In this document: positions 35,441 through 60,242 of the stretch, in pieces
How positions within the stretch are numbered: the stretch's first letter is position 1
Layout: every line of letters starts with the position of its first letter
From: Methanomassiliicoccales archaeon
GTDB taxonomy: Archaea; Thermoplasmatota; Thermoplasmata; RBG-16-68-12; SOIM01
Assembly (NCBI GenBank): GCA_030593295.1
Contig: JAUVHO010000003.1
Span: 22,164 to 86,163, forward strand
DNA: 64,000 nt
Direction: 5' to 3'
The notes under the pieces: generated by a model
Databases searched by the model: none
What the model was told of the DNA's origin: nothing
What the model saw: only the letters and a program-made list of their open reading frames with translations
Program-made: the position numbers and the translations under genes

Positions 35441-36094
35441 TCACTCTTCTTGGTCGGGAGACGCTTCCTCCTGCACTTCCTCTTCTGGCGTATCAGATTC
35501 CGGCTCCTCTTCTACCGTAGGCTCTTCTTCCTTCTTCCTGCGTTTTGCCAGCACGGCGGCGATCAGGGCCACGATGATTATGATGATCAGAAGCAGAAGC
35601 CACCAGTAATCAAACAGATCGAAGATCTCCTCCTCGGCGAGCTCACCTGAGAGCGAAACGGTGTTCGTTTCCTCATTTCCCGCTCCGTCCTCGGCCCTTA
35701 CCGTGAAATAATAGGTCACGCCCCTCTCAAGGTCCAGGAATGGATACTGCTGCTGACTCGTGGTCGCAGTGGGCTGAGCGAAATCGAAACTTCCGGGCAC
35801 TTCACTGACGTATATGTTGTAGGTGATGGGCATTGACGGGTCGCTGTTGCACTCGGGTTCATTCGGATCAACGGCAACGTTCCACACGAGGGCAATGTCT
35901 CCGGTATCGTCATCCGCTATCACGTTGGTGACCCCGCCGAAGGTCGGGGGTGTCGAGTCAACAGGAGTCGTGGGCATGGCAATGTGTTCGATGACGTTGC
36001 TCTCCTCGTTCCCAGCCGCGTCCTCCGCTCTGACGACGAAGTAATAAGTCACGCCGTTCTGCAGACAATCGTCATCGCTCCTGTTCTGAAGCAA
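35441..36094 (-). pseudogene. 5'-truncated remnant of a third T-type surface protein gene (end of one FN3 repeat, one complete FN3 repeat, TM anchor, acidic tail)
   Basis: The ORF opens inside an FN3 unit ('LQNGVTYYFVVRAEDAAGNEESNVIEHIAMPTTPVDSTPPTFGG...') and has no signal peptide or propeller. Collinear with the last roughly 215 aa of 44526..48368. Confidence 0.7.
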
Positions 36095-36096
36095 TC

Positions 36097-36104
36097 ATTA
36101 AATA
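36097..36104 (+). promoter_or_regulatory. TATA-box-like element (ATTAAATA) upstream of 36142
   Basis: Lies 37 nt upstream of the GTG start and is followed by ATGGGGGG-N6-GTG. Confidence 0.35.
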
Positions 36105-36141
36105 GACTGGAACAGATATTCAGGAAGATGGGGGGTAAGTC

Positions 36142-38574
36142 GTGAGGGAGAGAGCTTTTCTCTGTATAATTGTCTCGATGGCTCTGGCCTTGCCGGGTTG
36201 CGTCATGGCGAGTGATGTGGTGGAGGCCCCGAGTGGGATAAACTGGACCAAAATGGGGCTCATCCAGGATATAGGCAAGCCCGGCGATTTTGATGACAAT
36301 CGTGCTGATTCAGGGTCTGTAATTGTTGATGAAGGGGTGTACAAGGTTTGGTACTCAGCATTTGACGACGTGAATTGGAGGATAATGTATTCAACCTCGC
36401 CAGATGGTCAAGTCTGGACGAAGCATGGTGTCGTTGTCGACCTTGGGTCCCCAGGTGATTTTGACGATCAATACGCTATGGCTCCAGCAGTCTTGCGGAA
36501 CGATCAGGGTCTATTTCAAATGTGGTATATTGGTCAATCTTATGGGCAGCTCGGATGGAGGATGGGGTATGCGACTTCGAATGATGGCGTTAATTGGCAG
36601 AAACATGGTCTGGTCTTCACTAAACCCGGTATTTCCATTGGGCCTTCGAACGTCCTTATTGACGAGAACGGCATGTACAGATTATGGTATAGTGAATACG
36701 ACCTCACGCACTGGAGGATTGGACACGCTACGTCGAACGATGGCGTGAATTGGAGAGACGACGGAGTCGCCATTGACGTCGGTCAACCCGGCGCACCAGA
36801 TTCCAAGTACGTCTATTTCCCTGCTGTCATAATCGAGCCCGACGGGTCCTATCTGATGCTTTATTGCCACTACGACGGAGGTTCTTCAGGCCATTTGGAC
36901 ATTCAATATGCGACATCACCTGACGGGATGGCCGGAACCTGGACCAAACAAGGGCTGTCGCTCCCACACGGTCCTCAAGGTGCGTACGACTGGCTTCAAG
37001 CAACCCCCACAACCGTTCGATTGAGAGATGATGGGCAGCATGAACTATTCTACTCAGGATTCGAAGGAAACCACAGGAGGATGATGTACGCGATTGAGGT
37101 TGGCCAGATACCGCCCGTTGCGAACATAGGTCCTGATAGAACGGTGCTGGAAGGCGAGACTGTGGTCTTTGACGCTTCTCTCTCCCATGATCCTGACGGG
37201 CAGATAGTCAGATACGAATTCGATTTCGGTGATGGAGAATACCTGATACTTCAATCCAGATCAGGAAACAACGGTATGCTCTTCGATCGCTCGGATTCCT
37301 TGATGAGTGGTGAGAAAGGTCCGCTTGAACCATTCGACAGTGAACCCCCAATTCCTATTGGCGTCGACACCAAAGGGCCTAGAAAGAGTCGCGTATTGAT
37401 CGATAGCGGTGCTGAAACCCCTGCAGTATCTTCATACCTGCAGTCAACGTTGGATGGGGGGAATCAACCCCTCGTGGAGCACGTGTATGGGGATGATGGA
37501 CATGGAGTCGACGGCATTTACACTGTCACCTTGACCGTCACGGACAATGATGGACTCTCCGCAAGCGCAAGCATGATAGTGACTGTTGAGAACGTCCCTC
37601 CGTCAATCGACTCCTTCAACCACTTCATCAAGATAATCAACGCACCAAGGACGATAGGTTACTGGGGACATCAGTGCACGGTCGATTTGCCTTATGGGGA
37701 CCATACTGGGATAGTTCAGGACTGGATTGAGAACATATCCTCACAGTCTCAGGTGTTTTCATGGGTGTCTTCCAAAGAAGATGTGTGCTCGATCGTCCAA
37801 GATGGGAACGCTCAGGAAATGAGGGAGATGGCGAAGAGGCAGTTGATGGGTCTTTGGCTCAACATCATAAGCGGCAAACTCCATCCATCCACCGAGATGC
37901 GAATGCCCTCTCTTACTTCATCTAAGACCCTTGACCCTGCAATCAGAGAGATCGAGGAAGTGATACTGGCTTCCTTAGATCGGGAAGAACTTGAGAGAGT
38001 CAAAGATATTGCCGACACAGTCAACAACGGAACCGGCATTTCGAGAATGCTGGTCGGTTTCACTGCCGAGGTCACCGACCCCGGTTCTGACGACATGACC
38101 TTCAAATGGGACTTCGGAGACATGTCCCCGTTGCTCATTACGACTTATTACAACAATGCACCTTTGAACACTCCAGATCCATATCCAAGCCCGGATGTCA
38201 ATCCAGTTCAGCTTTCTGAGGTTGTTGACCACTGGTACGCGATACAGAGCATATTCGAGGTTCTGTTGATCGTCGAGGACGACGATGGCGGAACATCCAA
38301 TACGATGGTGATAGTCCAGTCTGATTTCCATACTATAAGCTGCTTCTCGTATGACGTGATTGACGTTGCTCAGCGCTCGATCTTCCTAGGTTCTTCCTTC
38401 GTATCGCATGCTGAGTCCGGTTCTGAGAGGGAGTACCTGGGGAACTTGGTTGATGGCCCGAGAACCGTGGAATACTTCATTCCCGAGGTTTACATCTCCA
38501 TGCCGCCGAGGAGCAGGTGGAACGTGCTTTCGGATCTCGTGCCTCCGTGGGAAGGCCTTACTATTTCAGAATAG
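36142..38574 (+). CDS. Surface protein A (P-type): signal/lipobox-like N-terminus, five-bladed beta-propeller, PKD domain with a roughly 60-75-aa insert, Cys-containing helical module, PKD-like domain
   Basis: 'ALALPGC' lies near the signal end. Five blades each read roughly 'W.K.G.V.D.G.PG.FDD...P.V....G...MWY.G.....WRIGYATS.DG..W'. PKD motifs 'DPDGQIVRYEFDFGDGE' and 'YTVTLTVTDNDG'. Helical module starts 'NAPRTIGYWGHQC'. Confidence 0.88.
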   Translation: MRERAFLCIIVSMALALPGCVMASDVVEAPSGINWTKMGLIQDIGKPGDFDDNRADSGSVIVDEGVYKVWYSAFDDVNWRIMYSTSPDGQVWTKHGVVVDLGSPGDFDDQYAMAPAVLRNDQGLFQMWYIGQSYGQLGWRMGYATSNDGVNWQKHGLVFTKPGISIGPSNVLIDENGMYRLWYSEYDLTHWRIGHATSNDGVNWRDDGVAIDVGQPGAPDSKYVYFPAVIIEPDGSYLMLYCHYDGGSSGHLDIQYATSPDGMAGTWTKQGLSLPHGPQGAYDWLQATPTTVRLRDDGQHELFYSGFEGNHRRMMYAIEVGQIPPVANIGPDRTVLEGETVVFDASLSHDPDGQIVRYEFDFGDGEYLILQSRSGNNGMLFDRSDSLMSGEKGPLEPFDSEPPIPIGVDTKGPRKSRVLIDSGAETPAVSSYLQSTLDGGNQPLVEHVYGDDGHGVDGIYTVTLTVTDNDGLSASASMIVTVENVPPSIDSFNHFIKIINAPRTIGYWGHQCTVDLPYGDHTGIVQDWIENISSQSQVFSWVSSKEDVCSIVQDGNAQEMREMAKRQLMGLWLNIISGKLHPSTEMRMPSLTSSKTLDPAIREIEEVILASLDREELERVKDIADTVNNGTGISRMLVGFTAEVTDPGSDDMTFKWDFGDMSPLLITTYYNNAPLNTPDPYPSPDVNPVQLSEVVDHWYAIQSIFEVLLIVEDDDGGTSNTMVIVQSDFHTISCFSYDVIDVAQRSIFLGSSFVSHAESGSEREYLGNLVDGPRTVEYFIPEVYISMPPRSRWNVLSDLVPPWEGLTISE

Positions 38575-38677: not shown

Positions 38678-40813
38678 ATGGGAGGACGGAGTGGGCGAAG
38701 ATTCGTGGTTCTCGCGTTATTCTGTGCCATGTTTCTCTCGGCATGCTCTTTCATGCCTTCCACTGAATCTGGAGACTCCGACGTTGAAGGAAGTAGCGGG
38801 GATGGTCTCAACTGGGTCAAGCTGGGTTTGAGTCTCGATGCTGGTCCCCCCGGCTCGCTTGACCAGGATAGGGTGACTTCGCCATCCGTGATTCTTGACG
38901 GCGACATCTACAAGCTGTGGTACTCTGGATATGACCTTACGAACTGGAGAATATTCTACGCGACTTCACTGAACGGGTATTCATGGACGAAGCACGGGAT
39001 GGTCTATGACATCGGTCCCCCCGGTAGCGCTGAGGATAGACACCTGGCGTTCCCAACGGTAATTCTGGACGATGGTGTATACAAGATGTGGTACACTGGG
39101 GAGTCCTACTCTCTTTCGGGCTGGCGAATATTCCATGCGACCTCCCCTGACGGGATCACGTGGACAAGACAGGGTATGGTGATGGACCTGGGTTTTGCTG
39201 GCGTATACGACTCTGTCGGGCTGGCCCATGCTACCGTGCTCAAAGAGCTTGACGGAACCTATTCCATGTGGTACAGCGGCTATGACACCTCCAACTACCG
39301 AATTCTCCACGCGACATCCAGCGACGGTCTGTCATGGATCAGTGATGGGCTGGCTTTGGATCTCGGTCCTCCTGGAAGCCTAGAGGATTTCGGAGTGTTG
39401 GCTCCATCAGTGATCTTTGCGAGGAATGGGACATATCAGATGTATTACTCGGGTGGATGGTCGGGTGACTTCTCCAAAGTCAGAATCTTCTATGCGTCCT
39501 CTCCCGACGGAGCCGGAAGTGATTGGCAGCGGGGCGGTATGGTCATCGATATTGGTCAGCCTGGTGACTGGGATAGTGTTCAAGCCATTGGACCGAAAGT
39601 GGTCAGGGAGTCCCGGTTCATGTACAAGATGTGGTACACGGCATTCAATGGTGTATCCAGAAGGGTCTGTTTTGCGATGGCCGGGGAGATGCCCTCCGTG
39701 GAGCCGACCAACCTCACGACCAGCGTGGTGAACGATAAAGACACCATGCTCAACTGGACCGACCCTGAACTGCCCTTTCTGGATCATTATCTCATCTACA
39801 GGTCATCTGACCACAGGAACTTCGACTTCGCCAGTTGGTACCACAACACATCCACTGACGTGGATCCCCTCGCAACCACCTGGACCGATTTGGATGCCGC
39901 AGCTCCTGGTTCTCCACGAGAGCTCTACTATGTGGTGAGGGCGGTGTACTTCTATGGCGGACTTAGTACAACAAGCAACACCGCAGGGAAATGGACCTTA
40001 AACTTCGATGCCGGCCTCGCTTCATTCTCTTTGCCGTTGAGACCCTTCATCGAGCGTAATGTCAGTTGGTATGCCGACCAGATTTCCAACCTCGAATATA
40101 TGGCGTGGCTTGGTCCCGACGACCGATGGGTTATGCGCAAACCACACCAAAACGAGGACGTGAAAGACACGGCCGCGAAATTCGGGTCAGGGTACGAACT
40201 GATGTTCAAAGCTGAATCGAATTTCACCGTGTGCGGGGCACCTGGATCAATGATCAAGTACAAAGAGGGTTTGGGAGAAGCTGTCTCTTGGGCCCGAAGC
40301 CTTTCTGCCATCCATGGGAACGGAGAAGTGACCTTGAGTTGGGACCAACTGCCAGGGGCCACAGAATACGACGTCCTGAAAGCGGAAGAGAGGGGAGGAT
40401 TGCACAACCTGACAATGCTCCCGGCCGTGACTGTCCCTGGAAGCGTGACCGGGTGGACCGACACCAACCCCTTCGAGAAATCATCCAGCGCATACTACAT
40501 GGTCATCGCAGTAAACTCCTCAGGTGTTCGAGGAAGCAGTACCTACAGCGTTGGCTTGGAGACAGTGCATTTAGAAAGCGGCATTCACAGTATCGGTTTG
40601 ATGTTGCAGCAGATCAAGCAGATGGATTTGTATGATTCTTGCAGCTCCTATCCTGGGATCGAAGGTGTTGCCTACGTAGTGTCCGGGGTGTGGAAGTTCC
40701 ATTCATGGGCGATGTCTCACAATGCTTACAATACCGATATGAACCAAGGAAATGGCTATCAAGTATCGGTGAGAAGCCTCTCCCAGCTGGATTTGGTGGA
40801 AATCGGGTACTAG
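38678..40813 (+). CDS. Surface protein B (X-type): lipoprotein-like signal, five-bladed beta-propeller, FN3-X-FN3-X stalk
   Basis: 'LALFCAMFLSAC' lipobox-like signal. Five repeats of the 'WYSGYD..NWRI.YATS.DG.SW' type. 'LNWTDPELPFLDHYLIYRS...ELYYVVRAV' (FN3-like). C-terminus '...GYQVSVRSLSQLDLVEIGY'. Confidence 0.88.
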   Translation: MGGRSGRRFVVLALFCAMFLSACSFMPSTESGDSDVEGSSGDGLNWVKLGLSLDAGPPGSLDQDRVTSPSVILDGDIYKLWYSGYDLTNWRIFYATSLNGYSWTKHGMVYDIGPPGSAEDRHLAFPTVILDDGVYKMWYTGESYSLSGWRIFHATSPDGITWTRQGMVMDLGFAGVYDSVGLAHATVLKELDGTYSMWYSGYDTSNYRILHATSSDGLSWISDGLALDLGPPGSLEDFGVLAPSVIFARNGTYQMYYSGGWSGDFSKVRIFYASSPDGAGSDWQRGGMVIDIGQPGDWDSVQAIGPKVVRESRFMYKMWYTAFNGVSRRVCFAMAGEMPSVEPTNLTTSVVNDKDTMLNWTDPELPFLDHYLIYRSSDHRNFDFASWYHNTSTDVDPLATTWTDLDAAAPGSPRELYYVVRAVYFYGGLSTTSNTAGKWTLNFDAGLASFSLPLRPFIERNVSWYADQISNLEYMAWLGPDDRWVMRKPHQNEDVKDTAAKFGSGYELMFKAESNFTVCGAPGSMIKYKEGLGEAVSWARSLSAIHGNGEVTLSWDQLPGATEYDVLKAEERGGLHNLTMLPAVTVPGSVTGWTDTNPFEKSSSAYYMVIAVNSSGVRGSSTYSVGLETVHLESGIHSIGLMLQQIKQMDLYDSCSSYPGIEGVAYVVSGVWKFHSWAMSHNAYNTDMNQGNGYQVSVRSLSQLDLVEIGY

Positions 40814-40865: not shown

Positions 40866-43800
40866 TCAGGCTTCTTCCTCTTGACCACCCGTGGCATCTT
40901 CGACGGGTTCTTCCACGGCCTCCTCTTCAGCTTCGACCTTCACGGTCGGTTCTCCACCCTTCTTTCGTCTGGCCAGTAATGCAATCACGACCACAAGGAG
41001 GATTATGATGATGACCAGAAAGATCCACCAGTAATCAAGGAAATCAAACGGCTTCTCCAGCACTGCCAATTCTACCGATTTGGTCACTGTGTTGTCTTCT
41101 TCATTCCCGGCAGAATCTTCTGCCCGAACGATGAAATAGTAGTCCACTCCGTCCTGAAGACCGGTGATCTGGATGCTCGTGTCCGTGGTGGTTGCATCTG
41201 GGACCAGTAGGTTCTGTCCTCCTGAGATCGTTGAGTAGTAGATATTGTAGGTTATCGGCAACGATGGATCTGAATTGCACTCGATCAGGTCGGGGTCGGT
41301 GGCCGCTGCCCACACAAGGTCGACGGCTTCTCCAGTGCCTGCATCCGAGGCAAGAACGAGTCCGGAGAAGACCGGAGGTTCTGCATCTACGGGAGTCGTC
41401 GGCATAGCGCTGAGCTCCACGATGTTGGACTCTTGATTCCCGACTGCATCGGTAGCTCTGACGACGAAGTAGTAGGTCACACCATCTTGCAAGCCCGTGA
41501 TGTAGATCTGCGTGTTCTGGGTTGTGGCATTGGGTAGTAGGAAGTTCTGGTTGCCCGGGAGAGTTGAGGCATATATCGAGTATGTGATCGGCACGGAAGG
41601 ATCAGAGTTACACTCTATCGTATCAGGATCGGTGGCGGGAGACCATGTTAAGGAGACATTCCCACCCATGAGTGTGTCTACCGCCGTTTGGATTCCAGCG
41701 AATGTTGGCGGGGTGTCGTCCGTCGGGGTCGTGGGCACGGCGGACCTCTCAACAGTATTGCTTTCCTGATTGCCGACCGCGTCCCTCGCTCTGACCACGA
41801 AGTAGTATACAACTCCATCTGAAAGCCCGCTTATATCCATCATCAGATTCTGTGTGGAGGCGTAGGGTGAAAGGAAGTTCTGGCCTCCAGATGTGGTCGA
41901 ATAGAAGATGTCGTAGTTCATTGGAGGGGATGGGTCAGAGTTGCATTCTATTGTGTCCGGGTCAGTGGCAGTGAGCCAATTGAGCGAAACGGTCCCGCCG
42001 GTCCCCGAATCAACGGCAAACTGAATACCACCGAAGTTGGGCGGTGTACTGTCGACGGGCGTGGTGGGCATGGCGCTCTTCTCGATGACATTCGCCTCTT
42101 CATTCCCCGCTGAGTCCCGAGCCCTAACCACGAAATAGTAGAATACGCCATTGTCCAGACCGCTGATGTTTATCTGGGTGTTGGTGGTTGACGCATTTGG
42201 ATTCATGAAAGCTTGCCCACCTGGTACCTTCGAATGGTAGACGTTGTAGGCGATCGGAAGCGATGGATCGCTGTTGCACTCTACGGTATCCGGGTCCGTT
42301 GCCGCAGTCCAGGTCAACTGAAGTGTTCCTCCTGATCCAAGGTCGGCCACAGATCCAAGGCCTGTGAACGATGGCGGTGTTGAGTCGATCGGTGTAGTTG
42401 GCATTGCGCTCAGCTCGATGACGTTGCTCTCCTCATTCCCTGCAGCGTCCTCTGCTCGAACCACAAAGTAGTACGTGTTGCCGTCTGTCAGCCCAGTTAC
42501 ATCTACGTTCGTGAGTTGCGTTGTGGCGTCGGGAACCAGGAAATTCTGCCCGCCGGATGTTCCAGCATGATAGACGTTGTATGAAATCGGGGTTGAGGGA
42601 TCTGAGTTACATTCGATCGTATCTGGATCTGAACCAGCATTCCAAGTCAATGTGACTGTTCCACCGGTTCCAGAATCAGTCGCAGTTTGCAGACCAGCGA
42701 ATGTCGGTGACGTGGAGTCAATTGGTGTTGTCGGCATGGCGCTTCTCTCGACGGTGTTGGTTTCTTCGTATCCCAAGCTGTCTTGTGCTCTCACAATGAA
42801 GTAGTACTGGACCCCATCGTCCAATCCTCCAGCTTGGTAAGTCGTCAATTGTGTAGTGTAGTTGGGCACCAGGAAGTTCTGGCCCATGGAAGTGGTGGCT
42901 ATGTAGATGTTGTAGTCGATTGGAGTTGACGGGTCGGTGGCAGGGTTCCAGTTGAGAGTTACCGATCCGCCAGTACCATCATCCGTTGCCGTGAGCAGTC
43001 CTCCGAACAGGGGTCCGGCTATGTCATCCCAGGTGACGGCCCAGTCCTCGAGAAGCGGATTGTCGGTCGTTGTCCCATAGAAGTCCGCGCGCAGCCGAAT
43101 GCTATTATCGGCCTTCGGGATTGAGCTCAAATCGATGACCGTTCCAGATAAGTCGGAATAGCCTGGATAAGGACGAAGGGTGTTCGTGTTCAAAACGGAC
43201 ACAAGGACTTCAGCCTCATTCGGCACTATGGTCTTGTTCAGAAAGAGGGTGTCCCAATCGTAGCCTGATGATTTGGTGATTGTTGTCGATGTCAGATTGC
43301 CAAGCGAACCTATAGTGGCGATCATCACCCGGTCATCAATCGCTGCATCCCTCCCAGTGTAATAGAGCCAGCCGGCCATGTTCACTGGTAATCGCAAACT
43401 TCCTATCAAGGTCTTCACTTCGTCATAATCTCCAAGTCCTCCAATACCGAGAACAATGCCATGCCTGTCCGTCCAGTCGACCCCATCAGGAGATTCCGCA
43501 TACAGCACACTCCAATCCGTGCCAACTGCACTGTACCACATTCTGTACCTTCCTGTGGAGTTCTTCAGGACTGCATTTTTGACTATCGAGGAATCATCTG
43601 GCGCACCCAGTGGTCCGTTTGGCAAGACCAAACCTTGCTTGGTCCAGGTGACGGCATCGGGAGATGTAGCATGAAAGATCTGATAGTTACCTCCTCCTGC
43701 AACCCCACTATACCAAGCCTTGTAGTCTGCCACATCCTCCAATACTGAAGCGTATCCAGAGACTACAGTTTCTCCCGAACCCCCCACGTTTATGGCAAGC

Positions 43801-48368: not shown

Positions 48369-48457
48369 ATTTAATCCTCCTCCGCAACATGGATTCAGTA
48401 CGCACCTGATAATATTTCCCACTGATATGCTGTGATTCCAGCCGTACTGGGGAATCG

Positions 48458-50687: not shown

Positions 50688-52565
50688 GTGTCTGGAGATT
50701 CCACGTGGGGTATTTGTGGGGTATACGGCTTCGAGGATCGGGCTCCAATCAAGAGAATGTGCTGGTCTCTTCAACATCGTGAGCCAGAAGGTGTCGGATA
50801 TCACGTAGACAAAGACTTGATGCTTGGCCACGATAGACTTGCGATCATCGACCTGCGAACGGGAGATTAACCCATCTACAATGAGGATCGATCATTGTGC
50901 GTCATAGACAATGGAGGAATCTACAATTTCGTGGAGCTACGTCAGGAGCTCGAGAAGAAAGGCCATAAGTTTTACACCAAGCCGGATACGGAAGTTGTTG
51001 TTCACTGCCACGAAGAATATGGCCTGAAGGCCTTTTCGAGATTCAATGGCATGTTTGCAGTCGCCCTATGGGATGATAACAAGAAGGAGCTCATTCTAGC
51101 TAGGGACAGAGATGGTGTGAAACCGTTGTACTATGCTATGCTCAAGGACGATAAGTTCCTGTTCGCCTCCGATCAAGGCCATTCTGCAACACCCAGAGGT
51201 CCCTAGAGAGTTGAACTTGGAAGCTTTTCACTTCTTCGTGAATCTTCGATACCTTCCAAGGGAACTCACAATGTTCAAGGGAATACACAGGCTCCTCCCA
51301 GCTCAGTACGCAGTTATCAGCAAAAAGGGCTTCAAGACTGGCTTCTTTTCACAATACAAGTTCAGACTCTAGAGAAAGAGCGAGGACTTCTTCGTAAAAT
51401 CTCTGCGAAACTACCTGAAACAGGCAGTGAGGCTCCAGATGGTTAGCGATGTGCCAATCGGGATATGTCTGTCTGTAGGGTTGGACAGTAGTGCAATCGT
51501 GGCTTTCGCATCCATGCAAACGGACGAAACCGTAAAGACCTATCGCATGGGATTTGGTGAGGACACAGATGAGATAGAAGAGGCCAACTTCGTGGCGGAT
51601 CACTTCAAGACCGATTATCGAAACCTCATAGTCAAGACCGATCTCTTGAAGGAATATTCCAAAATGATTTAGTGTGCAGATGCACCCAAGAGGATTCTTT
51701 ACCCCTACTACCTTTCTGAGCTTGTAGGTCAGAAAGTAAAGGTCGCCCTGGGAGGTCTGGGTGGGGACGAGCTCTTCGGAGGCTACATCGGGAAATACCA
51801 GTACGCTGAAGACGCAATGAGAAAGAGAAGAACGATCCCCTCAAATGTGAGAAGGAAATTGGCTAGTAGTGCTCAAAACCTGATTGCTTTCCAGTCTTCC
51901 CAAGGTCACTTGTCAGATGACAAGAATCTGGAATACCTAAAGAAAATAAAGCACATTGATAGCAACGTGGACCTTTACCTCAACATTCAGAGCATGGATG
52001 AGGTTCTTCCCAAAAGGTATCTCGAGAGTCTATACGGGACCAAGATGTCGAGAGCAAAGTTTAGGAAATCAGGGAACCGTTCAAACCCTTCTTTAAGTCC
52101 AACAGTCAACTGATGAAGCAATCCATGGAGACCGATTCTCAGGTTAAGATGGTCGACGGTTTCCTCTTTGTTGAGGATGCCATGTTGATGGTCCACTCGT
52201 TGGAGCCCCGGATTCCCTTCTTAGAAAAGAACTTAGTGGACTTCGCTTTTACGATTCCTCCTTCCCTCAAGTGGAAGGATGGAATGGGGAAATACATATT
52301 CAGAAGAGCTATACGGCCCTATCTGCCAAAGGAAGTGTTTCACAAAAAGGAAGCAAGGCTTCGGAAGCAATGTGTTCAGAATGTGCCTGGACGAGATACA
52401 TGAGGTCGCCAGTCAAAGGCTATTGGAAGGGAACATCATCGCTGAAGGACTCATGAGCAAGAAGTTGTCGAAAGGGTTGTTAATCACGAACCTACGCCTG
52501 CCCTAACAAAACACTATTGTCTAGCACTGAGTCTGCTCACATTTGAGATTTAGCATGACATCAAC
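50688..52565 (+). pseudogene. Degraded asparagine synthase-family (asnB-like) amidotransferase gene
   Basis: Homology to 32432..34336 runs through four or more frames. 'ICGVYGF' sits where MCG is expected. In-frame TAA at 50868, TAG at 51370, 51670 and 52551. Frame changes near 51168, 52055, 52345 and 52500. The PP-loop reads 'SVGLDSS' instead of SGGLDSS. Confidence 0.88.
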
Positions 52566-52674: not shown

Positions 52675-53811
52675 TTGACTCTTGACAGGATAGTGATTCA
52701 TGTGGAAAGGCAGATTAAACTGATTGAACCCGTCGTGGGAGATGAGGAATTGTCTCTTATCCGGGAGGTTCTGGAATCTGGATATATGACAGAAGGCCCA
52801 AAGGCCCGAGAGTTTGAGAAGAGTTTTGCGGAATTGGTTGGGGCCAAGCATGCGATAGTAACAACTTCCTGCTCAACTGCGCTTCAGTTGTCAGTCGACA
52901 TACTTGGAGTTGGACCCGGGGACGAAGTAATTGTCCCTGATTTCACCTATCCCGTGACAGCTGATGTGGCTAGACTGAGAGGGGCCAGGGCGGTATTGGT
53001 TGACGTGGACGAAAGCACGTACAACATCGACCCAGATGAGGTCAGGAAAGGTATCACAGATAAGACAGTGGGTATAGTGCCTGTCTCCTTGTTCGGTCAC
53101 CCGCTTGACATGGCTCCTTTGAGGGAGATTGCTCAAGAACACGATTTATTCATCTTGGAAGATGCCGCTTGCAGCACTGGCGCGAGGTTCAATGATGAGA
53201 AGACCGGTTCGATGGCGGACTTGACTTGTTTCAGCTTCCATCCCAGGAAAGTGATCACTACTGGGGAGGGTGGAATGCTGACTACAGACGATGATGAATT
53301 GGCAGAGAAAGCAAGGGAGATGAAGAGATTCGGTATGAGAATGGTGGACGGAAGATCTCTATTCATGACTGTCGGAACCAACTACAAGCTGAGTGATGTT
53401 CTGGCCGCAATTGGCGTGAAGCAGCTTGAGAAAATCGACAGGATCATTGAGAGGAGGCGGGAGTTGGCGGCTGTCTACGATTCCCTCCTTACCGATGTTG
53501 TCCTTCTCAAGAAACCAGCAGTGGATAATCGGGTTTACCATACATATCAGACCTATGCTGCTTTTGTGATCAAGGATGGCGTTCGAGACAGGCTCATCAA
53601 GGACATGGGAGAGAAGGGAATCGAAACGCAAATCGGAACCTACTCACTGCACATTCAGCCGAGTTTCAGTGATGAAACAAGGATTGGAGACCTTGTCCAC
53701 TCGACGAAGCTCTTTGAGAATCTGTTGGCCTTGCCCATGTCCCAATCAATGACCGAAGACGACCAGGAGATGGTTGTCCGAGAAGCAATTGGACTTCTCG
53801 AATCATATTGA
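52675..53811 (+). CDS. DegT/DnrJ/EryC1/StrS-family PLP-dependent sugar aminotransferase
   Basis: 'IKLIEPVVGDEELSLIREVLESGYMTEGPKAREFEKSFAELVGAKHA', 'FSFHPRKVITTGEGGML', 'NYKLSDVLAAIG'. Start uncertain (TTG 52675 or GTG 52702). Confidence 0.85.
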   Translation: MTLDRIVIHVERQIKLIEPVVGDEELSLIREVLESGYMTEGPKAREFEKSFAELVGAKHAIVTTSCSTALQLSVDILGVGPGDEVIVPDFTYPVTADVARLRGARAVLVDVDESTYNIDPDEVRKGITDKTVGIVPVSLFGHPLDMAPLREIAQEHDLFILEDAACSTGARFNDEKTGSMADLTCFSFHPRKVITTGEGGMLTTDDDELAEKAREMKRFGMRMVDGRSLFMTVGTNYKLSDVLAAIGVKQLEKIDRIIERRRELAAVYDSLLTDVVLLKKPAVDNRVYHTYQTYAAFVIKDGVRDRLIKDMGEKGIETQIGTYSLHIQPSFSDETRIGDLVHSTKLFENLLALPMSQSMTEDDQEMVVREAIGLLESY

Positions 53812-53823
53812 GGATGTGATGTA

Positions 53824-54729
53824 ACGAAAAAGCTTATCGTATTTGGGGCCGGAGGGTTTGTTGGAAGGAATCTAGTTCACAGTCTACACGATGATGGGAT
53901 TCATCTGATTGCCTGTGATGTGATGGATTCTCCGTTTCCTGAGGATGTTCTATACGATAAGGTCGACATCACAAGAAAAGAAGAAGTTGCCAAAGTCATG
54001 GAAGGTGCTCAGTCAGTGATTCACTTGGCCGCATCTCCGCTCACAATGTCCTTGGAAGATCCCATATTGGATATGCGTGTGAATGTGGGTGGCACTTTGA
54101 ACATAATGGAGCGCTCAAGAAAAGAGAAGGTCAGTCTGATTATCTACTCCTCAGCCTCATCCGTGGTTGGGACCCTCCAGCATAACCCAGTGGATGAGAA
54201 TCATCCTTGTGTTCCCAGGACAACCTACGCAGCTTCCAAACTATCTTGCGAACACTACCTCCGCGTTTATCAGGAGATATACGGGCTCAACTATCTGGTG
54301 TTCAGGTTCTTCAACATCTACGGACCATGGCAGTATCCAACAAGTGGAGGTCTAATTCCTTCTATCATTAATCGAGTCCTCAACAAAGAAGATATTAAAG
54401 TATTCGGAGACGGCTCCGCCAGAAGGGATTTCGTTTACGTTGAGGATTTGGTGCATCTGTACAAGTCTGCTATTGAGGGAAAAGTCACTAACGAGGTACT
54501 AAACTTGGGTACAGGTACTGGAACTTCAATAATGGAAGTTGTTGAGACTGTTGGTGACGTACTGGATATTGAACCGAACATACAATATGAGCCAAAGAGG
54601 GATGGCGAAATCAACGATTTCTATGCAGACACTGCAAAGCTCGAGAGGACGTTTGGATTCAAGCCGAATACATCCTTGAGAGAAGGCGTTGAGAAGACGT
54701 GTCAATGGTTCCTGGAGGAGAACATATGA
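53824..54729 (+). CDS. NAD-dependent sugar epimerase/dehydratase (SDR family) lacking a canonical start codon
   Basis: The Rossmann motif 'TKKLIVFGAGGFVGRNL' is encoded at 53824-53874 in frame with ORF 53920..54729 ('YAASKLSCEHY' = YxxxK). There is no ATG/GTG/TTG between the TGA at 53809 and the GTG at 53920. An ACG at 53824 sits 9 nt after GAGGA. Confidence 0.8.
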   Translation, partial: TKKLIVFGAGGFVGRNLVHSLHDDGIHLIACDVMDSPFPEDVLYDKVDITRKEEVAKVMEGAQSVIHLAASPLTMSLEDPILDMRVNVGGTLNIMERSRKEKVSLIIYSSASSVVGTLQHNPVDENHPCVPRTTYAASKLSCEHYLRVYQEIYGLNYLVFRFFNIYGPWQYPTSGGLIPSIINRVLNKEDIKVFGDGSARRDFVYVEDLVHLYKSAIEGKVTNEVLNLGTGTGTSIMEVVETVGDVLDIEPNIQYEPKRDGEINDFYADTAKLERTFGFKPNTSLREGVEKTCQWFLEENI

Positions 54730-54760
54730 AAGCATCCCGAATTCAGTGCCAGATCACTAA

Positions 54761-56503
54761 TTGCGGACCCAGGACGGCCGTACAATGATTGGAGTATTGA
54801 AATCATCAATCAATAGAGATAACTACGCCACAAAGAGGCTGCATGATTTCGGCTTGAGATGGTTTAGATACATCGAGTCTGCCAGAGACGACCTTTCAGA
54901 ATTCCATCTTCTCTTGGTCCCAAAAAGCGAACTTAGCAAAGAGGAGACTGAGAATATCCTAGATTTCTTGGAGAATACGGGGTCCGTCATATCTCTATAC
55001 CCAAACGAAGAGCTAGTCCATAATGTCGGGTCACTCAACGAGTTCTTGGAGGTTCCTCAAGACCAACTCTCCGGTCATGTAATGCTAGATTCGATTGATG
55101 TCCCTGTCTTCGGCCGGATCTGCAACATTGGTGATACAGAGTTTTCCCTTGAGATGGCTGGATCTGAGTTTCCGGCTTTGGCTAGGAGACGATTCAACAA
55201 AGGCTCTCTTTTTGTGTTCTCATATTCTCTTTCGGATTCTGTTCTGGAAACCACACAACGTCTATTGACTGTCAATCCCAAACTCGGAGATGGAGTAAAA
55301 TGGGGGGATTATCCTGGAAACCTCCTCGATGTAACCAAAGAACCGCTCGATGTCCCATATTCAGACATTCAAATGATATTCCTGAGGAGCTTGATTCTCA
55401 CAGAACTTCACCGGCAGGGGATAGCATTGCCCATCGTCTGGCATGTTCCGTATGCCAAGAGGACCTGCGTGATGATAACGATGGATGAGGATTGGACTAA
55501 CCCATGCTGTCTTGACCATTCTCTTAATCTCCTGGCCGAGAGAAACTTGCCATCAACATTGTTCGTCACTGAGAAGATCGAAGGGTCAAAAGCGTTCTTA
55601 TTTCAGCACGAATGTGACCTTGCTGTGCATCCGTTCCACAAGAATGCGACTTTCAGCAAAGACACTCTAAGAAGGAGCACAGGTTTCCTGTCTGAGAGTC
55701 CAAAAGGAGTCAGAAACCACCGGAGACTAGTGGCTCGACCCGAAATGTTTTCAGCTGAAATCGACCTGGGCTTTCAATGGGAATCGAATCTCGGTGTCTC
55801 GAAGACCTCAGGATTTGCCAATGGTACGGGCCTCCCATTCTTTTTGTGGGATAATGGTGACGAGTACGACTTGCTGGAGTTCCCTATTCATTTCGAAGAT
55901 GATTTGTATCTGTTTGAAGAAGCCAATTTTGATTTCAGGGAATCGGTCATTAGAAAGATGTTGGAAGAATCAAGGGAGAGGTTCTTCTCATGTCTGAATC
56001 TGGCATTCCATCCTATTCACATATTCTTGAACTCGACAAGCATAGCTGACTATGAGGATTGCAAGCAACATGGTGTGTCAAAGAACGGCCAGAAGCTTCA
56101 GGAGTATCGAGCTTCTCTTCCAACCAGAAAGGGAGTAGAGAACCTGTTCACGGCGTTATTGGACTATCTTATCGCCGAGTCGCACGACATTCTAGTCACT
56201 ACGTGCCAGAAGATCAACGATTATGTTCGAGAATGCCAGTCCGTTGAGATATCTTTTGATAACAGGAAGACTACCATATCAGGATGTTTCGAAGGACTCA
56301 CCATTCTCTTTCCCTTTACAGATGAATCCAGATTGGATGAGGTGGAGAATCTCTTTGCCAAGGCCCAATCAATCGATGTCGGCGGGATCCGGAGCATCCT
56401 AGCACAGGTTTCCTCAGAAGGTGTAAGGAAGGGAAGCATTGAAATCGAAGGAGAATCTTTCAGCTCCAACGCTCCTGGAACTGAAGAAGGAGGAGGGTGT
56501 TGA
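54761..56503 (+). CDS. Hypothetical protein with a central polysaccharide-deacetylase-like region
   Basis: 'CVMITMDEDW', 'LPSTLFVTEK', 'LAVHPFHKN', 'GVRNHRRL' resemble 31126..32412. N- and C-terminal parts are unassigned. The start may be the ATG at 54785. Confidence 0.45.
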   Translation: MRTQDGRTMIGVLKSSINRDNYATKRLHDFGLRWFRYIESARDDLSEFHLLLVPKSELSKEETENILDFLENTGSVISLYPNEELVHNVGSLNEFLEVPQDQLSGHVMLDSIDVPVFGRICNIGDTEFSLEMAGSEFPALARRRFNKGSLFVFSYSLSDSVLETTQRLLTVNPKLGDGVKWGDYPGNLLDVTKEPLDVPYSDIQMIFLRSLILTELHRQGIALPIVWHVPYAKRTCVMITMDEDWTNPCCLDHSLNLLAERNLPSTLFVTEKIEGSKAFLFQHECDLAVHPFHKNATFSKDTLRRSTGFLSESPKGVRNHRRLVARPEMFSAEIDLGFQWESNLGVSKTSGFANGTGLPFFLWDNGDEYDLLEFPIHFEDDLYLFEEANFDFRESVIRKMLEESRERFFSCLNLAFHPIHIFLNSTSIADYEDCKQHGVSKNGQKLQEYRASLPTRKGVENLFTALLDYLIAESHDILVTTCQKINDYVRECQSVEISFDNRKTTISGCFEGLTILFPFTDESRLDEVENLFAKAQSIDVGGIRSILAQVSSEGVRKGSIEIEGESFSSNAPGTEEGGGC

Positions 56504-57201
56504 GAATGACAAAGGTCAGATTGCTGGGTGAAAACATCTTAATCGGAAAGAACGTGAGGTTTGGAGAGAACGTCATTGTATACGACAACGTTGAAATCGG
56601 AGATCGTGTTGTCGTTGAACACAACAGCATCATAGGATACGACCACTTGACTAATCTGCGCGATGAGGTGAGGAATCTAGAGACGCCCTATCTCACCAGA
56701 GTAGGAGATGATGTACTCATTCGACCCAGTTCGATCATCTATGCTGGTTGTAGCATCGGGGATTACAGCCGGATATGCAGCCATGTCATAATGAGGGAAT
56801 TCACTGAACTGGGTGAGAATAGCTATCTGGGGAATGGCACGAAGGTGGAAGGCTATACTAAGATAGGGAACAACACCGCCATCGAAACCCAGGTTCATGT
56901 TACTGCAAAAGCCTTGATCGAGGACAAGGTGTTCATCGCTACTATGACCGTTCTGGCAAATGGACTGACTATGAATTGGAGTCGACCTCATATTCCGACA
57001 GTTGAAGAAGGTCCTAGGATTCGGAGAGGCGCTAGAATTGCCATCGGAGTAAAAATCCTGCCCGGAGTTGAGATAGGGAGGGAGGCTCTAATCGGAGCGG
57101 GCGCGGTCGTGACCAAGGACGTGCCTCCATTCAAAATCGCATTGGGAGTCCCAGCGAGAGTTGTCGGTGAAGTTCCCGAAGAGGAAAGGCTTAGGGAGTA
57201 G
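56497..57201 (+). CDS. Left-handed beta-helix (hexapeptide repeat) acetyltransferase
   Basis: 'IGKNVRFGENVIVYDNVEIGDRVVVEHNSIIG', 'IGVKILPGVEIGREALIGAGAVVTKDVPPFKIALGVPARVV'. Confidence 0.8.
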   Translation: MLRMTKVRLLGENILIGKNVRFGENVIVYDNVEIGDRVVVEHNSIIGYDHLTNLRDEVRNLETPYLTRVGDDVLIRPSSIIYAGCSIGDYSRICSHVIMREFTELGENSYLGNGTKVEGYTKIGNNTAIETQVHVTAKALIEDKVFIATMTVLANGLTMNWSRPHIPTVEEGPRIRRGARIAIGVKILPGVEIGREALIGAGAVVTKDVPPFKIALGVPARVVGEVPEEERLRE

Positions 57202-57247
57202 GGGACGGCCACTCCCTACGGGGTTATTGAGTTTTCCTCCAATAGTC

Positions 57248-57255
57248 ATTTATAC
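57248..57255 (+). promoter_or_regulatory. TATA-box-like element (ATTTATAC) upstream of 57300
   Basis: Lies 44 nt upstream of the ATG and is followed by ATGGGGGA-N6-ATG. Confidence 0.35.
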
Positions 57256-57299
57256 CGGCTTACGCATTTGTATGATAGGAGAAGGATGGGGGAAAGTCC

Positions 57300-60242
57300 A
57301 TGCGAGGGGTAACTACTTGGTCCGTCCTGATTGTTCTTAATCTAGTCACGCCTATTGTTGTCGCTTCCGAGGCCCTGGATCAGACTTCTTTCAACTCCAT
57401 TCCCACGTTTACCTGGAAGAAGATGGGAGTCGTAATAGACATTGGTGCCCCGGGTGAGCCCGACCATGTTGCCGCGTCTTCGGCTTATGTCATGTATGAC
57501 AACAACACATACAAGATTTGGTACTCAGCATACGATGGCAACAATTGGAAGGGAATACTCTACGCCACATCCATCGATGGGCATACATTCACGAAACATG
57601 GAATAATCTTGGATGTTGGGGCACCAGGAGATATGGATGATGATTTTGTTAGGGATCCATCGGTCCTGAAGAACAATCAAGGTCTCTACGAGATGTGGTA
57701 CACTGGACAGAAGAAGGGTATTTGGGGATGGAGGATTTTCCACGCCACTTCGACTGATGGCGTGAACTGGCAGAAGCATGGCCTGGTATTCTCAAGAGCT
57801 GAACTCGCAGTGGCTCATCCAGATGTTATACTGGCTGGTGACGGTACATATAGAATGTGGTTCAGTGAGTATGACAAGACCCATTGGAGGATTCGGACTT
57901 CAACTTCCCCTGATGGTCAAACGTGGACTGACCAAGGCCTTTGTCTCGATGTGGGACCTCAAGGTGGTCCTGATTGGCTGTATGTTTACATGCCAAGTGT
58001 GATTGTGGAGCCGGATGGCACATATGTCATGTTCTACAGTGATTCTGATGGCAATCAGTATAACCACGTGGATATTTCCTATGCCACATCTTCCAGTGGC
58101 ATGGCAGGAACATGGACAAAGCATGGAGTAACACTGGATCGTGGGCAGCCTGGTGAGTATGACGACGTTCAAGCCATCAGCCCATCCATAGCGATGGGAC
58201 CAGATGGAATTCACAGGCTATACTACTCCAGTTATGATGGACAGAATAGAAGAATGATGCTCGCGATAGAGGCTGGCCCTCAACCTCCAGTGGCAAATAT
58301 CGGGTCGGATAGGACAATAGAAGAGGGAGAATCCGTGGTTCTGGATGTGTCTGATTCTTATGACCCCGATGGATATATCGCTCGATATGAGTATGATTTC
58401 GGAGATGGGACCTACTTCGTCTATGTACCACCATCGCCGGGGCAGAAGCCACCCTTGATTGGGAACCAGTACGGGGACGATGGCAAAGGCAACGACGGTT
58501 TCTACACGATTACTCTCACGGTCACTGATGATGAGGGAATTTCTGCCACTGATAGTATGATAGTGACCGTCTTGAATGTCAATCCCACAACCTCATCCAC
58601 TGCACCTTCAACAGTTTATGAGGGGGGCGCGGTAACAGCGTCACTTGAGGTTACCGATCAAGGTAGCGATGACTTGTTCATTGAGATTGACTGGGGGGAC
58701 GGAAGTTCGCCAAGCGACATTGTTAGCCTGAATGACCCGTCTGTCGGTCCCGATCCATACCCAAGCCCGGAGGTCAATCCTCGACATCTCACGAAGTCGG
58801 CTCATCATGTCTACGGAGACAATGGAATCTTCACGCTAACAATATCAGCGTCAGATGATGACGGAGGAGTATCCATTTCCTCTCAAGATATCAAGGTGAT
58901 GAACCTCCCGCCATCTCTATCTGTCCCAGAGCCCCGTGCAGTTTCTGAGGGTCAGGGAGCTACACTTCAGATAGATGTGCTGGATCTTGGAAGCGATGAC
59001 ATCTCAATATCGATTGACTGGGGGGACGGGTTGTCCGAGGAAGAGATATACTACAATGATGGAGTTGGGCCAGATCCCCCGGAGAGTCCCCAAGGCGCAC
59101 ACCCTGTCAGCATTTCGAAGACATTTACCCATACCTACGGGGACAATGGAATCTACAGGGTAACAGTCGTCGCATCAGATGACGATGGCGGTGAATCAAC
59201 CAAGACTGTAGATATGGAAGTCCTGAACGACGCTCCGACTGTGAATCCGTTCGGTCCTTTCACGATCGATGAAGGATCCTCTCTTTTCATTGGAACTAAG
59301 GCCAGAGATGCGGGAAGTGATGATTTGACTTTCTGGTGGATATGGGAGCTTGGCCCTAGCATCGAAAACACCTACTTCAATGACGGGATTGGCCCTGATC
59401 CATATCCGAGTCCACATGGCACTTATCCGTTCTCTACAATGGATGTATCATCCAACACTTATGGAGACAACGGGAATTACTCTATTGTGTTATCAGTCCG
59501 GGACGATGATGGAGCAGTCACAAATCTCGCAACTTATGTTCTCGTCTCGAATGTTGCACCTTCGATTGTATCGGTCAGCTATACCGTCTTCACTAACGCC
59601 CCAAGGACGATAGGTTATTGGGGCCATCAGTGCGAAGTCTTGGCACCGTATGGCGACCATACGGGAATACTGCCGGAATGGGTTGCGGAAATCTCCTCCA
59701 AATCCCAGGTTTTCTCGGGCATTACGAGTGAAGTCGAGGTGTGTGAGGTGTTGCAGACAGGTGATGCATCAGAGATGGTGGAAATGGGGAGGAGACAACT
59801 CATGGGTGTCTGGCTCAACGTCGTGAGCGGCAAGCTGAGCCAAGAAGCGGAGTTGAACATGCCCAACCTCACATCGACATCCACGGTATGGGATGCAATT
59901 CTAGAGGTTGAGAACTTGATACTCACTCTTGCAGAGAGAGACGAGTTGGAGAGAGGGAAGAACATTACGGACAACATGAACAATGGGATAGGTATCGCAC
60001 TGGCAACCGTCGAATTCATCAGCACGGCAACAGATCCCGGGTCAGACGATTTGATATTCACCTGGGATTTTGGCGATGGTACTGTGCAGAAGAATTCATA
60101 TCTAAACGATGGGACATTTCCTGTCGAGGTTACTGACTTCATTGGACATTCATACTTCTCTGCAGGATCGTTCATCGTCACTCTGACCGTTGAGGATGAT
60201 GACGGCGGAGTATGTACTGTCACGATTCCAATCGAAGTCTAG
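57300..60242 (+). CDS. Surface protein F (P-type): signal peptide, five-bladed beta-propeller, PKD domain, three PKD-like 'GSDD' repeats, Cys-containing helical module, terminal PKD-like domain
   Basis: Same domain order as 36142..38574, with three extra repeats ('GSDD(L/I)...DWGDG...NDG(V/I)GPDP(Y/P).SP...H.YGDNG.Y...DDDGG'). Helical module starts 'NAPRTIGYWGHQC'. Confidence 0.88.
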   Translation: MRGVTTWSVLIVLNLVTPIVVASEALDQTSFNSIPTFTWKKMGVVIDIGAPGEPDHVAASSAYVMYDNNTYKIWYSAYDGNNWKGILYATSIDGHTFTKHGIILDVGAPGDMDDDFVRDPSVLKNNQGLYEMWYTGQKKGIWGWRIFHATSTDGVNWQKHGLVFSRAELAVAHPDVILAGDGTYRMWFSEYDKTHWRIRTSTSPDGQTWTDQGLCLDVGPQGGPDWLYVYMPSVIVEPDGTYVMFYSDSDGNQYNHVDISYATSSSGMAGTWTKHGVTLDRGQPGEYDDVQAISPSIAMGPDGIHRLYYSSYDGQNRRMMLAIEAGPQPPVANIGSDRTIEEGESVVLDVSDSYDPDGYIARYEYDFGDGTYFVYVPPSPGQKPPLIGNQYGDDGKGNDGFYTITLTVTDDEGISATDSMIVTVLNVNPTTSSTAPSTVYEGGAVTASLEVTDQGSDDLFIEIDWGDGSSPSDIVSLNDPSVGPDPYPSPEVNPRHLTKSAHHVYGDNGIFTLTISASDDDGGVSISSQDIKVMNLPPSLSVPEPRAVSEGQGATLQIDVLDLGSDDISISIDWGDGLSEEEIYYNDGVGPDPPESPQGAHPVSISKTFTHTYGDNGIYRVTVVASDDDGGESTKTVDMEVLNDAPTVNPFGPFTIDEGSSLFIGTKARDAGSDDLTFWWIWELGPSIENTYFNDGIGPDPYPSPHGTYPFSTMDVSSNTYGDNGNYSIVLSVRDDDGAVTNLATYVLVSNVAPSIVSVSYTVFTNAPRTIGYWGHQCEVLAPYGDHTGILPEWVAEISSKSQVFSGITSEVEVCEVLQTGDASEMVEMGRRQLMGVWLNVVSGKLSQEAELNMPNLTSTSTVWDAILEVENLILTLAERDELERGKNITDNMNNGIGIALATVEFISTATDPGSDDLIFTWDFGDGTVQKNSYLNDGTFPVEVTDFIGHSYFSAGSFIVTLTVEDDDGGVCTVTIPIEV
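58605..59580 (+). repeat. Three tandem coding PKD-like repeat units (about 325 nt each)
   Basis: Units begin near 'TAPSTVYEGG', 'SVPEPRAVSEG' and 'NPFGPFTIDEG'. Each contains GSDD, (D/I)WG(D/E) and YGDNG motifs. Confidence 0.75.

Follow-up and report, generated by a model that had tools for sequence, protein, structure and literature searches.

The question raised by a stretch of 64,000 nucleotides from a Methanomassiliicoccales archaeon of the class Thermoplasmata (assembly GCA_030593295.1, contig JAUVHO010000003.1, positions 22,164 to 86,163; hereafter the window) is whether six paralogous genes, A to F, encode a dedicated surface machine. Their products join an internally repetitive beta-propeller head to one of three stalk types, designated P (A and F), X (B and E) and T (C and D). 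In the original prediction, made from the letters of the DNA, they were taken as two alternative three-component sets forming a heteromeric glycan-binding or glycan-processing surface layer, with T as the membrane-anchored stalk. Our analysis favors a mix-and-match island of surface proteins over a dedicated new machine. We favor, with a probability of roughly 0.55, the interpretation that it is a variable, fast-evolving island of exported modular surface proteins within a surface-glycan cluster, in which the propeller heads most likely recognize glycans and are mounted on generic scaffolds.

Six paralogous open reading frames (ORFs) and a remnant of a third T-type gene (R) were found at the coordinates and on the strands originally assigned (Table 1), and all six proteins begin with a hydrophobic signal-like segment. 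The six heads align over approximately 290 amino acids (aa) with pairwise identities of 31 to 56%. When they were cut at a conserved Trp, 30 blades of 51 to 63 aa were obtained that align nearly without gaps, with the consensus W..k.G.v.d.G.pG..d......p.V......g.y.mwYsg.d.......r.i.yAtS.dg, and the mean blade-to-blade identity within a head was 28 to 39%. When a blade hidden Markov model (HMM) was built from blade 1 of the other five heads only, it detected five of five blades in every head at 6.5 to 77 bits (the weakest blades were C5 and D5), compared to 8 bits for the best of the shuffled decoys (200 per head). In four blades out of five, the Asp-box-like turn S-x-D-G-x-x-W, which had been pointed out before, was 83 to 100% conserved. 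The canonical Asp-box S-x-D-x-G-x-T-W, which is longer by one residue, is a hairpin that lies between strands C and D in successive blades (PMC9218822, citing Quistgaard and Thirup 2009).

The AlphaFold2 model of head A, computed on a 99-sequence alignment, showed five blades and 20 strands (5 x 4), with a pLDDT of 94.9 and a pTM of 0.91. When this model was searched with Foldseek, the top match was the glycoside hydrolase family 130 (GH130) enzyme Teth514_1788 (9FJ8; TM-score 0.78, E = 1e-13, 17% identity), followed by other GH130, GH43, GH117, GH159 and GH62 structures (TM-scores of 0.6 to 0.78 overall); no lectin propeller was found among the 50 best matches. When profiles were compared to the PDB, that of the six heads matched the GH117 entry 4AK5 (E = 2e-15) and that of the 99-sequence wider family matched the GH130 entries 7FIP and 9FJ8 (E = 1e-32). 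The Foldseek match and the wider-family profile match show that the head is a distant but real relative of GH130, and the agreement of AlphaFold2, Foldseek and profile matches bears out the suspected five-bladed propeller of the GH43/32/117/130 superfamily. The Pfam models GH43, GH130 and BNR_2 scored below their cut-offs on the heads. PF04041 (GH130) matched B only, with 19.8 bits compared to a cut-off of 26, and gave no match at E <= 0.01 for the other five; two NCBIfam GH130 equivalog models scored 17 to 54 bits, compared to cut-offs of 450 to 550, on different blades in different heads.

The heads thus resemble the GH130 beta-mannoside phosphorylases/hydrolases (Teth514_1788, 9FJ8; Teth514_1789, 7FIP; BT3780, 5A7V) in the five-bladed propeller, which is the best fold match, and in an Asp at the invariant position in E and F; blades 1 and 2 of 9FJ8 also match the blade motif weakly (7 to 15 bits with the blade HMM). 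In contrast, identity is 13 to 18%, A to D lack the invariant Asp, the five blades of the window heads are alike whereas two are recognizable in 9FJ8, and the window proteins are predicted to be exported on long stalks whereas GH130 phosphorylases are intracellular (PMC4599007). With the GH117, GH43, GH32, GH62 and GH159 enzymes (the Pfam clan of beta-fructosidase-like propellers) the heads share the fold, partial profile matches and a G-x-W/F-D ... P-x-V motif before strand A, but these matches span one or two blades, which are not the same in different heads.

The invariant catalytic Asp of GH130 (Asp142 of BT3780, Asp131 of BF0772 and Asp104 of UhgbMP) is part of an E/Y-D-P-R motif where the innermost strand of blade 2 begins, and its mutation abolishes activity (PMC4599007). 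GH130 subtypes additionally possess three basic phosphate-binding residues (phosphorylases) or a Glu227/Glu268 pair (hydrolases). The register in which blade 1 corresponds to blade 1 was taken from Foldseek, whose full-length alignment places 304 and 297 residues in 314 columns, and was also supported by the blade HMM, which places 'PRIV' of 9FJ8 on the motif P-x-V. HMM-to-PDB alignments of the periodic profiles ran one blade off the structural register and were not used for catalytic-residue mapping. The residue at the position of the GH130 Asp was found to be Ala in A, Phe in B, Ser in C, Ala in D and Asp in E ('RDS') and F ('RDP', in F alone among the six heads), and the position was not conserved across 113 members of the head clade.

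When these 113 members were aligned with hmmalign, all of the 40 best-conserved columns (at least 74%) were periodic motif positions, namely S-x-D-G..W, MWY, the strand-A Val and flanking scaffold residues. Acidic-rich columns (the WD Asp) and basic-rich columns (W-x-K and the residue before MWY) occur once per blade, and no acidic or basic column specific to one blade was conserved among the 113 members. Likewise, no blade-specific conserved counterpart was found in these members for the Asp/Asp/Glu of GH43 or for the WMNDPNG Asp, RDP Asp and EC Glu of GH32. This five-fold periodicity, which is not blade specific, agrees better with the original impression of a lectin-like head than with an enzyme.

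Identity among the paralogues was 28% in strand A, which lines the central channel and is the least conserved strand, 24% in the top B-C loops and 26% in the bottom A-B turns, compared to 44 to 57% in strands B to D. Between orthologues, the head was more conserved than the stalk in E (90% vs 74%), F (81% vs approximately 72%) and B (92% vs 76%). Because of this difference, the heads appear to be under purifying selection and to be functional and specialized, not decaying. With a conserved scaffold and a variable ligand-binding funnel they look like binding modules. Judged by this conservation pattern, the head is most likely mainly non-catalytic and glycan-recognizing; most of the heads (A to D) are probably non-catalytic, and E and F may have weak residual glycosidase activity.

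The head clade has 125 homologues in a large protein database, the closest being 65% identical, so the proteins of the window itself are absent from that database; an exact-sequence look-up of F also retrieved no public record. The homologues come from Thermoplasmata, Dehalococcoidia, Eisenbacteria and other metagenome-assembled genomes (MAGs), and a five-fold repeat is seen in the family consensus as well. The presence of a T9SS sorting domain or a FlgD-Ig domain marks many of the homologues as secreted. The bacterial 'GH43/DUF377-like' propellers among them (Eisenbacteria, Dehalococcoidia and others) are exported members of the same clade with surface-targeting fusions and share the consensus W-x-K...NPVL..G..G-x-WD......P-x-V......Y-x-MWY-x-G........IGYATS-x-DG. 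They differ from the window heads in sequence (25 to 40% identity) and in having T9SS C-terminal domain and FlgD-Ig anchors instead of the X, P and T scaffolds. A fourth architecture was observed in the closest homologues (P0001-P0006), in which the head is followed by a C-terminal domain of approximately 150 aa with the motif LNLKSKGNWITCYIELP-GYDP-DID--TILLN; no Pfam match to this domain was found in the two members scanned (P0002 and P0004).

As predicted, the three stalk types are mutually unrelated, each is present twice, and a transmembrane anchor occurs in the T type alone. The T-type array of FN3 units followed by a transmembrane helix and an acidic tail was confirmed, with six units in C and seven in D. 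The unit is 111 aa long (a DNA period of 333 nt), and T-type orthologues have five (locus L003) or eight (locus L022) of them. Among the surface proteins of the window, the C-terminal transmembrane helix with a basic stretch (RRKK) and an acidic tail of approximately 30 aa is present in C, D and R only; an HMM of helix and tail also matched other large proteins. The remnant was correctly recognized as T-type, since it shares 62% identity with the C-terminus of D, has a transmembrane helix at aa 165-183 and matches the FN3-unit and tail HMMs. It is a 5'-truncated gene fragment, because no FN3 similarity was detected upstream of approximately 36064. The 3' ends of C and D (40940-41162 vs 44591-44813; last FN3 unit, transmembrane helix and tail) share 80% DNA identity. 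The stalks of C and D are 69% identical compared to approximately 35 to 36% for their heads, and this difference suggests that the two stalks later recombined or underwent gene conversion. A 111-aa FN3 variant with the conserved insert DPDT-x-ECNSDPS was found to be common in soil and sediment metagenomes (192 confirmed stretches, L028-L107); it occurred together with a propeller head only in the three closest loci of the metagenome scan.

The C-terminal region of approximately 370 aa of B and E is 52% identical. Its reading as FN3-X-FN3-X proved right, as it is a tandem duplication, (FN3+X)x2, with an hhalign probability of 99.9% (E = 4e-36) between the halves; a BLAST self-comparison missed the duplication. 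The model of the X stalk is a compact four-domain body (pLDDT 96, pTM 0.92). Foldseek returned only generic tandem-FN3 proteins for it (TM-score approximately 0.2), with no global structural analogue, and a PDB sequence search matched the FN3 parts only. The module is present in 43 database proteins, the named ones nearly all from Thermoplasmata-type MAGs, where it follows parallel beta-helix/NosD, vWA, ThuA, Big_13 and CARDB heads. When loci were scanned in one genome per GTDB species with an alignment of a 13-sequence subset (a 45-sequence alignment was too diverse for this purpose), 25 loci were found, all in Thermoplasmata, Methanomassiliicoccales or 'Methanobacteriota' MAGs and at least 13 of them in MAG RS_5_45. 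The heads at these loci included CARDB, BNR/GH43-like with CARDB, LTD+vWA+MAM and ThuA. At three loci in three different MAGs (L018, L020 and L024, at approximately 5.8 to 20.7 kb in each), three giant X-stalk genes coding for 1250 to 1815 aa lie in tandem; LTD and vWA domains were detected in the giant proteins scanned. The X module thus serves large adhesin-like arrays too.

The PKD domains of A and F and the Cys-containing module reported with them were both present. The copies of the 136-aa two-Cys module in A and F share 58% identity. A word-index search with this module gave no match. In contrast, an exhaustive HMMER search yielded 264 representative homologues, 97 of them at E < 1e-10, usually with the match near the C-terminus of the host protein. 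The hosts sampled bear PQQ-propeller, NosD+vWA, FG-GAP or GH130-like heads on PKD strings. No PDB sequence match and no Pfam counterpart was found for the two-Cys module. The X module and the two-Cys module are undescribed domain families.

These findings show that the scaffolds are generic, the same modules carrying beta-helix, vWA, ThuA, CARDB, PQQ-propeller and FG-GAP heads in other proteins. No stalk module is specific to the propeller, X being found also with beta-helix, vWA, ThuA, CARDB, LTD and BNR heads and the two-Cys module with PQQ, NosD+vWA and FG-GAP. The proposal of two alternative three-component sets thereby loses its main support. It was further weakened by the relationships of the heads, which cut across stalk type (E-F, 56%; A-F, 50%; B-E, 40%; C-D, approximately 35%), the head of E being closer to that of F than to that of B. 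Together with the similarity of the C and D stalks, these identities point to gene conversion or to shuffling of domains. In line with the original reading of the gene order, the two sets are not the product of a simple inverted duplication of three genes, because the identities of the paired heads (A-F, B-E and C-D) are far below those between orthologues (65 to 81%); the two sets therefore split before these genomes diverged.

Cassettes of the same kind were present in relatives. A locus of the Thermoplasmata MAG RS_5_45 (L003) is syntenic with the window, its flanking 428-aa protein, AsnB and 320-aa protein being 94%, 93% and 88% identical, respectively. These flanks are followed by an X-stalk protein of 570 aa that bears another head, and then by T(-), X(+), an asnB-like gene, DegT, epimerase, deacetylase, acyltransferase and P(+); the T, X and P proteins are 65%, 81% and 75% identical to D, E and F, respectively. 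In JGI sample 3300041077, one contig (L108) is syntenic with the window at 22-30 kb (PriS, 87%; FtsY, 94%; GT2, GT2 and GT4), GT4 being followed by an asnB paralogue and then by an orthologue of A (74 to 89% identical). On a second contig of this sample (L001), an orthologue of B (P0121; 82% by tblastn over aa 120-711 of B, with 92% in the aligned head part and 76% in the stalk) is convergent with an orthologue of C (77%). Thus, the D-E-F set is present in RS_5_45 and orthologues of A-B-C on contigs of sample 3300041077, and the window has both sets and a truncated third T gene. The relatives are close, flanking genes being 87 to 94% identical. T and X genes lie side by side in five places, one of them in the more distant genome bin24, where the X-type neighbor has a ThuA head and not a propeller. 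T-type genes were also found on soil and sediment contigs of 7 to 18 kb (L028-L030, with a tandem pair on L028) that have no X or P gene in that sequence. The expected co-occurrence outside this genome was therefore found for D-E-F in RS_5_45 and for A-B-C in one other sample, but not on the contigs where T stands alone. A dedicated three-component system is not supported.

In the arrangement that we propose, each protein would begin with an N-terminal signal and display a divergent, pseudo-five-fold-symmetric GH130-related propeller as its distal head. The T scaffold would be a rod that is built of 111-aa FN3 units and terminates in a transmembrane helix with an acidic tail in the cytoplasm, the X scaffold a compact four-domain (FN3+X)x2 C-terminal module, and the P scaffold a string of PKD domains, the last of which holds the 136-aa two-Cys module. 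Carbohydrate would be recognized by the heads at the funnel of the top face, and the innermost strands and top loops, which vary between paralogues and are kept between orthologues, would give about six specificities.

Table 1. Coordinates of the propeller genes and of the glycan-related genes between them (positions in the window).
Feature	Type	Position	Strand	Description
R	T, third gene, 5'-truncated remnant	35441..36094	-	217 aa; one and a bit FN3 units, transmembrane helix, basic stretch, acidic tail
A	P	36142..38574	+	LPGC signal; head 36244-37107; PKD with insert; 136-aa two-Cys module 37639-38046; PKD; 80-aa C-terminal extension
B	X	38678..40813	+	Signal with RR motif and LSAC; head 38810-39697; (FN3+X)x2 39698-40810
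C	T	40866..44384	-	Signal; head 43290-44168; linker domain; six 111-aa FN3 units 41076-43025; transmembrane helix 40971-41027; basic stretch; acidic tail
D	T	44526..48422	-	Signal; head 47283-48158; linker domain; seven FN3 units 44724-47009; transmembrane helix 44622-44678; acidic tail
E	X	48513..50609	+	Signal; head 48630-49502; (FN3+X)x2 49503-50606
asnB-like pseudogene	frameshifted	50688..52500	+	Between E and the sugar-modification genes; asparagine-synthase-like fragments over several frames
Four glycan-modification genes	between E and F	52675..57201	+	Pfam: DegT aminotransferase, NAD-dependent epimerase, WbmS-like deacetylase, hexapeptide acyltransferase
F	P	57300..60242	+	Signal; head 57414-58289; PKD domains; 136-aa two-Cys module 59595-60002 at start of last PKD

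Several points weigh against the interpretation favored here. Pfam GH32N matched A, D and F at 24 to 26 bits (cut-off 22.1), covering 100 to 150 of 307 model positions; many head homologues are labelled 'predicted GH43/DUF377 family glycosyl hydrolase' by automatic annotation; and the catalytic positions were mapped by motif-level sequence alignment and not by structural superposition. A carbohydrate ligand is suggested by homology, and an unconventional catalytic mechanism is possible. The X- and P-type proteins have no transmembrane helix of their own, and their attachment to the cell is predicted; N-glycosylation sequons were not enriched in the window proteins, so that nothing marks these as major glycoproteins. 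The fold and the remote homology to GH130, GH117, GH43 and GH32 enzymes, as well as the annotation of the relatives, would agree with active extracellular hydrolases of a new GH130/GH43-like family, tethered to the surface, that degrade environmental polysaccharides or trim the cell's own surface glycans, with six paralogues for different substrates. An Asp kept in the R-D-P/S of E, F and their orthologues and aligned with the GH130 E-D-P-R, the purifying selection on the heads between orthologues, and the existence of surface-tethered GH130 hydrolases with signal peptides such as BT3780 (PMC4599007) point the same way. We nevertheless regard such hydrolases as unlikely, given that the clade has no conserved blade-specific acidic or basic residue, that A to D lack the invariant Asp, that none of the six heads reached the gathering score of PF04041, if it matched at all, and that the innermost strand, where these enzyme families have their catalytic residues, varies more among the paralogues than any other strand. 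The equivalent of BT3780 Asn74 was not kept even in E or F (alignment read by eye). The purely periodic, scaffold-like conservation, the long rod-like stalks typical of adhesins, and the beta-helix, FG-GAP and CLIPPER domains in neighboring surface-protein genes of relatives could instead indicate structural or protein-binding elements of the envelope (lattice-forming or cell-cell adhesion units), with the glycosidase resemblance as an evolutionary relic. This is very improbable in our judgment, as all characterized relatives of the same fold bind sugars, the genes lie inside a glycan-biosynthesis cluster, and divergence among the paralogues is greatest in strand A and the B-C loops, which form the sugar-binding funnel in related enzymes.

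Little credence is given to a dedicated heteromeric assembly in which T would provide the membrane-anchored stalk for X and P to dock onto, with A-B-C and F-E-D as alternative sets. Such an assembly would account for the order T(-), X(+), glycan genes, P(+) kept in RS_5_45, for the A, B and C orthologues found together in sample 3300041077, for the repeated T-X adjacency, for X and P types without a membrane anchor, and for the predicted rigid four-domain body of the X module. However, the syntenic genomes are close relatives, so that their shared gene order says little about a functional link; many copies of the X module, the two-Cys module and the transmembrane tail are known, with many unrelated heads; and the ThuA head in bin24, the T-type genes without X or P on soil and sediment contigs, and the head relationships that cross stalk types all count against such an assembly. 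A broader idea is that the (FN3+X)x2 and two-Cys modules are new archaeal envelope-attachment or assembly modules, counterparts of SLH, the T9SS C-terminal domain or cohesin-dockerin, which would permit a combinatorial display of heads and anchors in Thermoplasmata; the T rods would be docking partners, and T, X and P, bearing pseudo-symmetric lectin heads derived from GH130, would make up a heteromeric canopy that binds glycans. This is speculative and distinctly unlikely.

Under the favored interpretation, an island of modular surface proteins with glycan-recognizing heads, comparable proteins are known among archaea. Modular archaeal surface or adhesin-like proteins and the SlaB-type S-layer stalks of Sulfolobales have a signal peptide, PKD/FN3 spacers, a distal functional domain and, in some cases, C-terminal transmembrane anchors, and cluster with glycosylation genes; the window proteins are alike in these respects. 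We know of no sequence relationship of the window proteins to known S-layer proteins. The X and two-Cys modules have no Pfam or PDB sequence counterpart except for the FN3 parts. Repeated-blade lectin propellers such as tachylectin-2 are similar in their high blade similarity but not in sequence, and provide an analogy only. The diversified lectin paralogues in one genome that are described for Streptomyces umbrella toxins (PMC13274773) are likewise an analogy only; several diversified paralogues per genome would suit multiple ligand specificities. In keeping with the original prediction, which did not recognize the combination as a described system, literature searches on symmetric propellers, Thermoplasmata surface proteins and Thermoprofundales turned up neither the arrangement nor its modules.

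The kind of protein is already known, and what is new is the non-enzyme-like conservation of a large clade annotated as glycoside hydrolases; the two unannotated, lineage-restricted C-terminal modules, which may be envelope anchors, are also new. The head clade is large, cross-phylum and secreted, and is labelled glycoside hydrolase by annotation pipelines, with a five-fold scaffold motif but no common catalytic residues. If the heads are lectins, counts of carbohydrate-active enzymes for sediment and soil metagenomes would be inflated, and the clade would show that a propeller enzyme can naturally become a binding module of near symmetry. Located at the C-terminal end of many different surface proteins, the X and two-Cys modules are candidate envelope-attachment modules in an archaeal group with an essentially unknown cell surface. 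The cassette-like turnover at the locus, with D-E-F in one relative, A-B-C in another sample and both here, is typical of fast-evolving surface islands.

Both lipobox-like sequences reported for the signals, LPGC of A and LSAC of B, were confirmed. The signal of B (38678-38760) has a twin-arginine-like motif, SGRRFVV, in addition to LSAC, a combination that may point to lipid anchoring and export by Tat; neither a twin-arginine-like motif nor a lipobox-like signal is seen in E or F. The listed GTG start of D (48368-48422) adds 18 residues (MGNIIRCVLNPCCGGGLN) ahead of 'MRVATPIK...'. Since 'MRVATPIK...' resembles the N-terminus of C, the true start of D is probably this internal Met, 19 codons downstream of the listed one. 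E and D are divergently transcribed from a 90-bp spacer. The X-type proteins end in ...EIGY and the P-type proteins have no hydrophobic end; no NCBIfam model of archaeosortase/PGF-CTERM-type C-terminal sorting signals, which consist of a signature motif followed by a transmembrane helix and a short basic tail as the last element of the protein, matched a window protein.

The window is archaeal, with PriS and FtsY present, and the six genes are surrounded by a glycan-biosynthesis cluster (GT2, GT4, GNAT, AsnB, DegT, epimerase, WbmS-like deacetylase, hexapeptide acyltransferases and GT1). The G+C content was 0.45 to 0.50 at 48000-62000 (E, the sugar-modification genes and F), compared to 0.51 to 0.56 over most of the window. 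The asnB-like gene that is a pseudogene here is intact in L003 (11185-13119, 644 aa) at the same place, and three types of asnB paralogue with 33 to 55% mutual identity flank the cassettes in the window, L003 and L108. The Rossmann N-terminus of the epimerase (KLIVFGAGGFVGRN), which matches the L003 orthologue, lies in frame at 53830-53919, upstream of the ORF at 53920-54729 and of the first ATG/GTG/TTG after a stop; the gene therefore either starts at a non-canonical codon or no longer has a start codon. The 320-aa protein encoded at 34419-35381 (+) has no Pfam match, and 178 aa of it align at 43% identity with the N-terminal part of the X-stalk protein of 570 aa in L003 (3972-5684); it may be another head domain, encoded alone.

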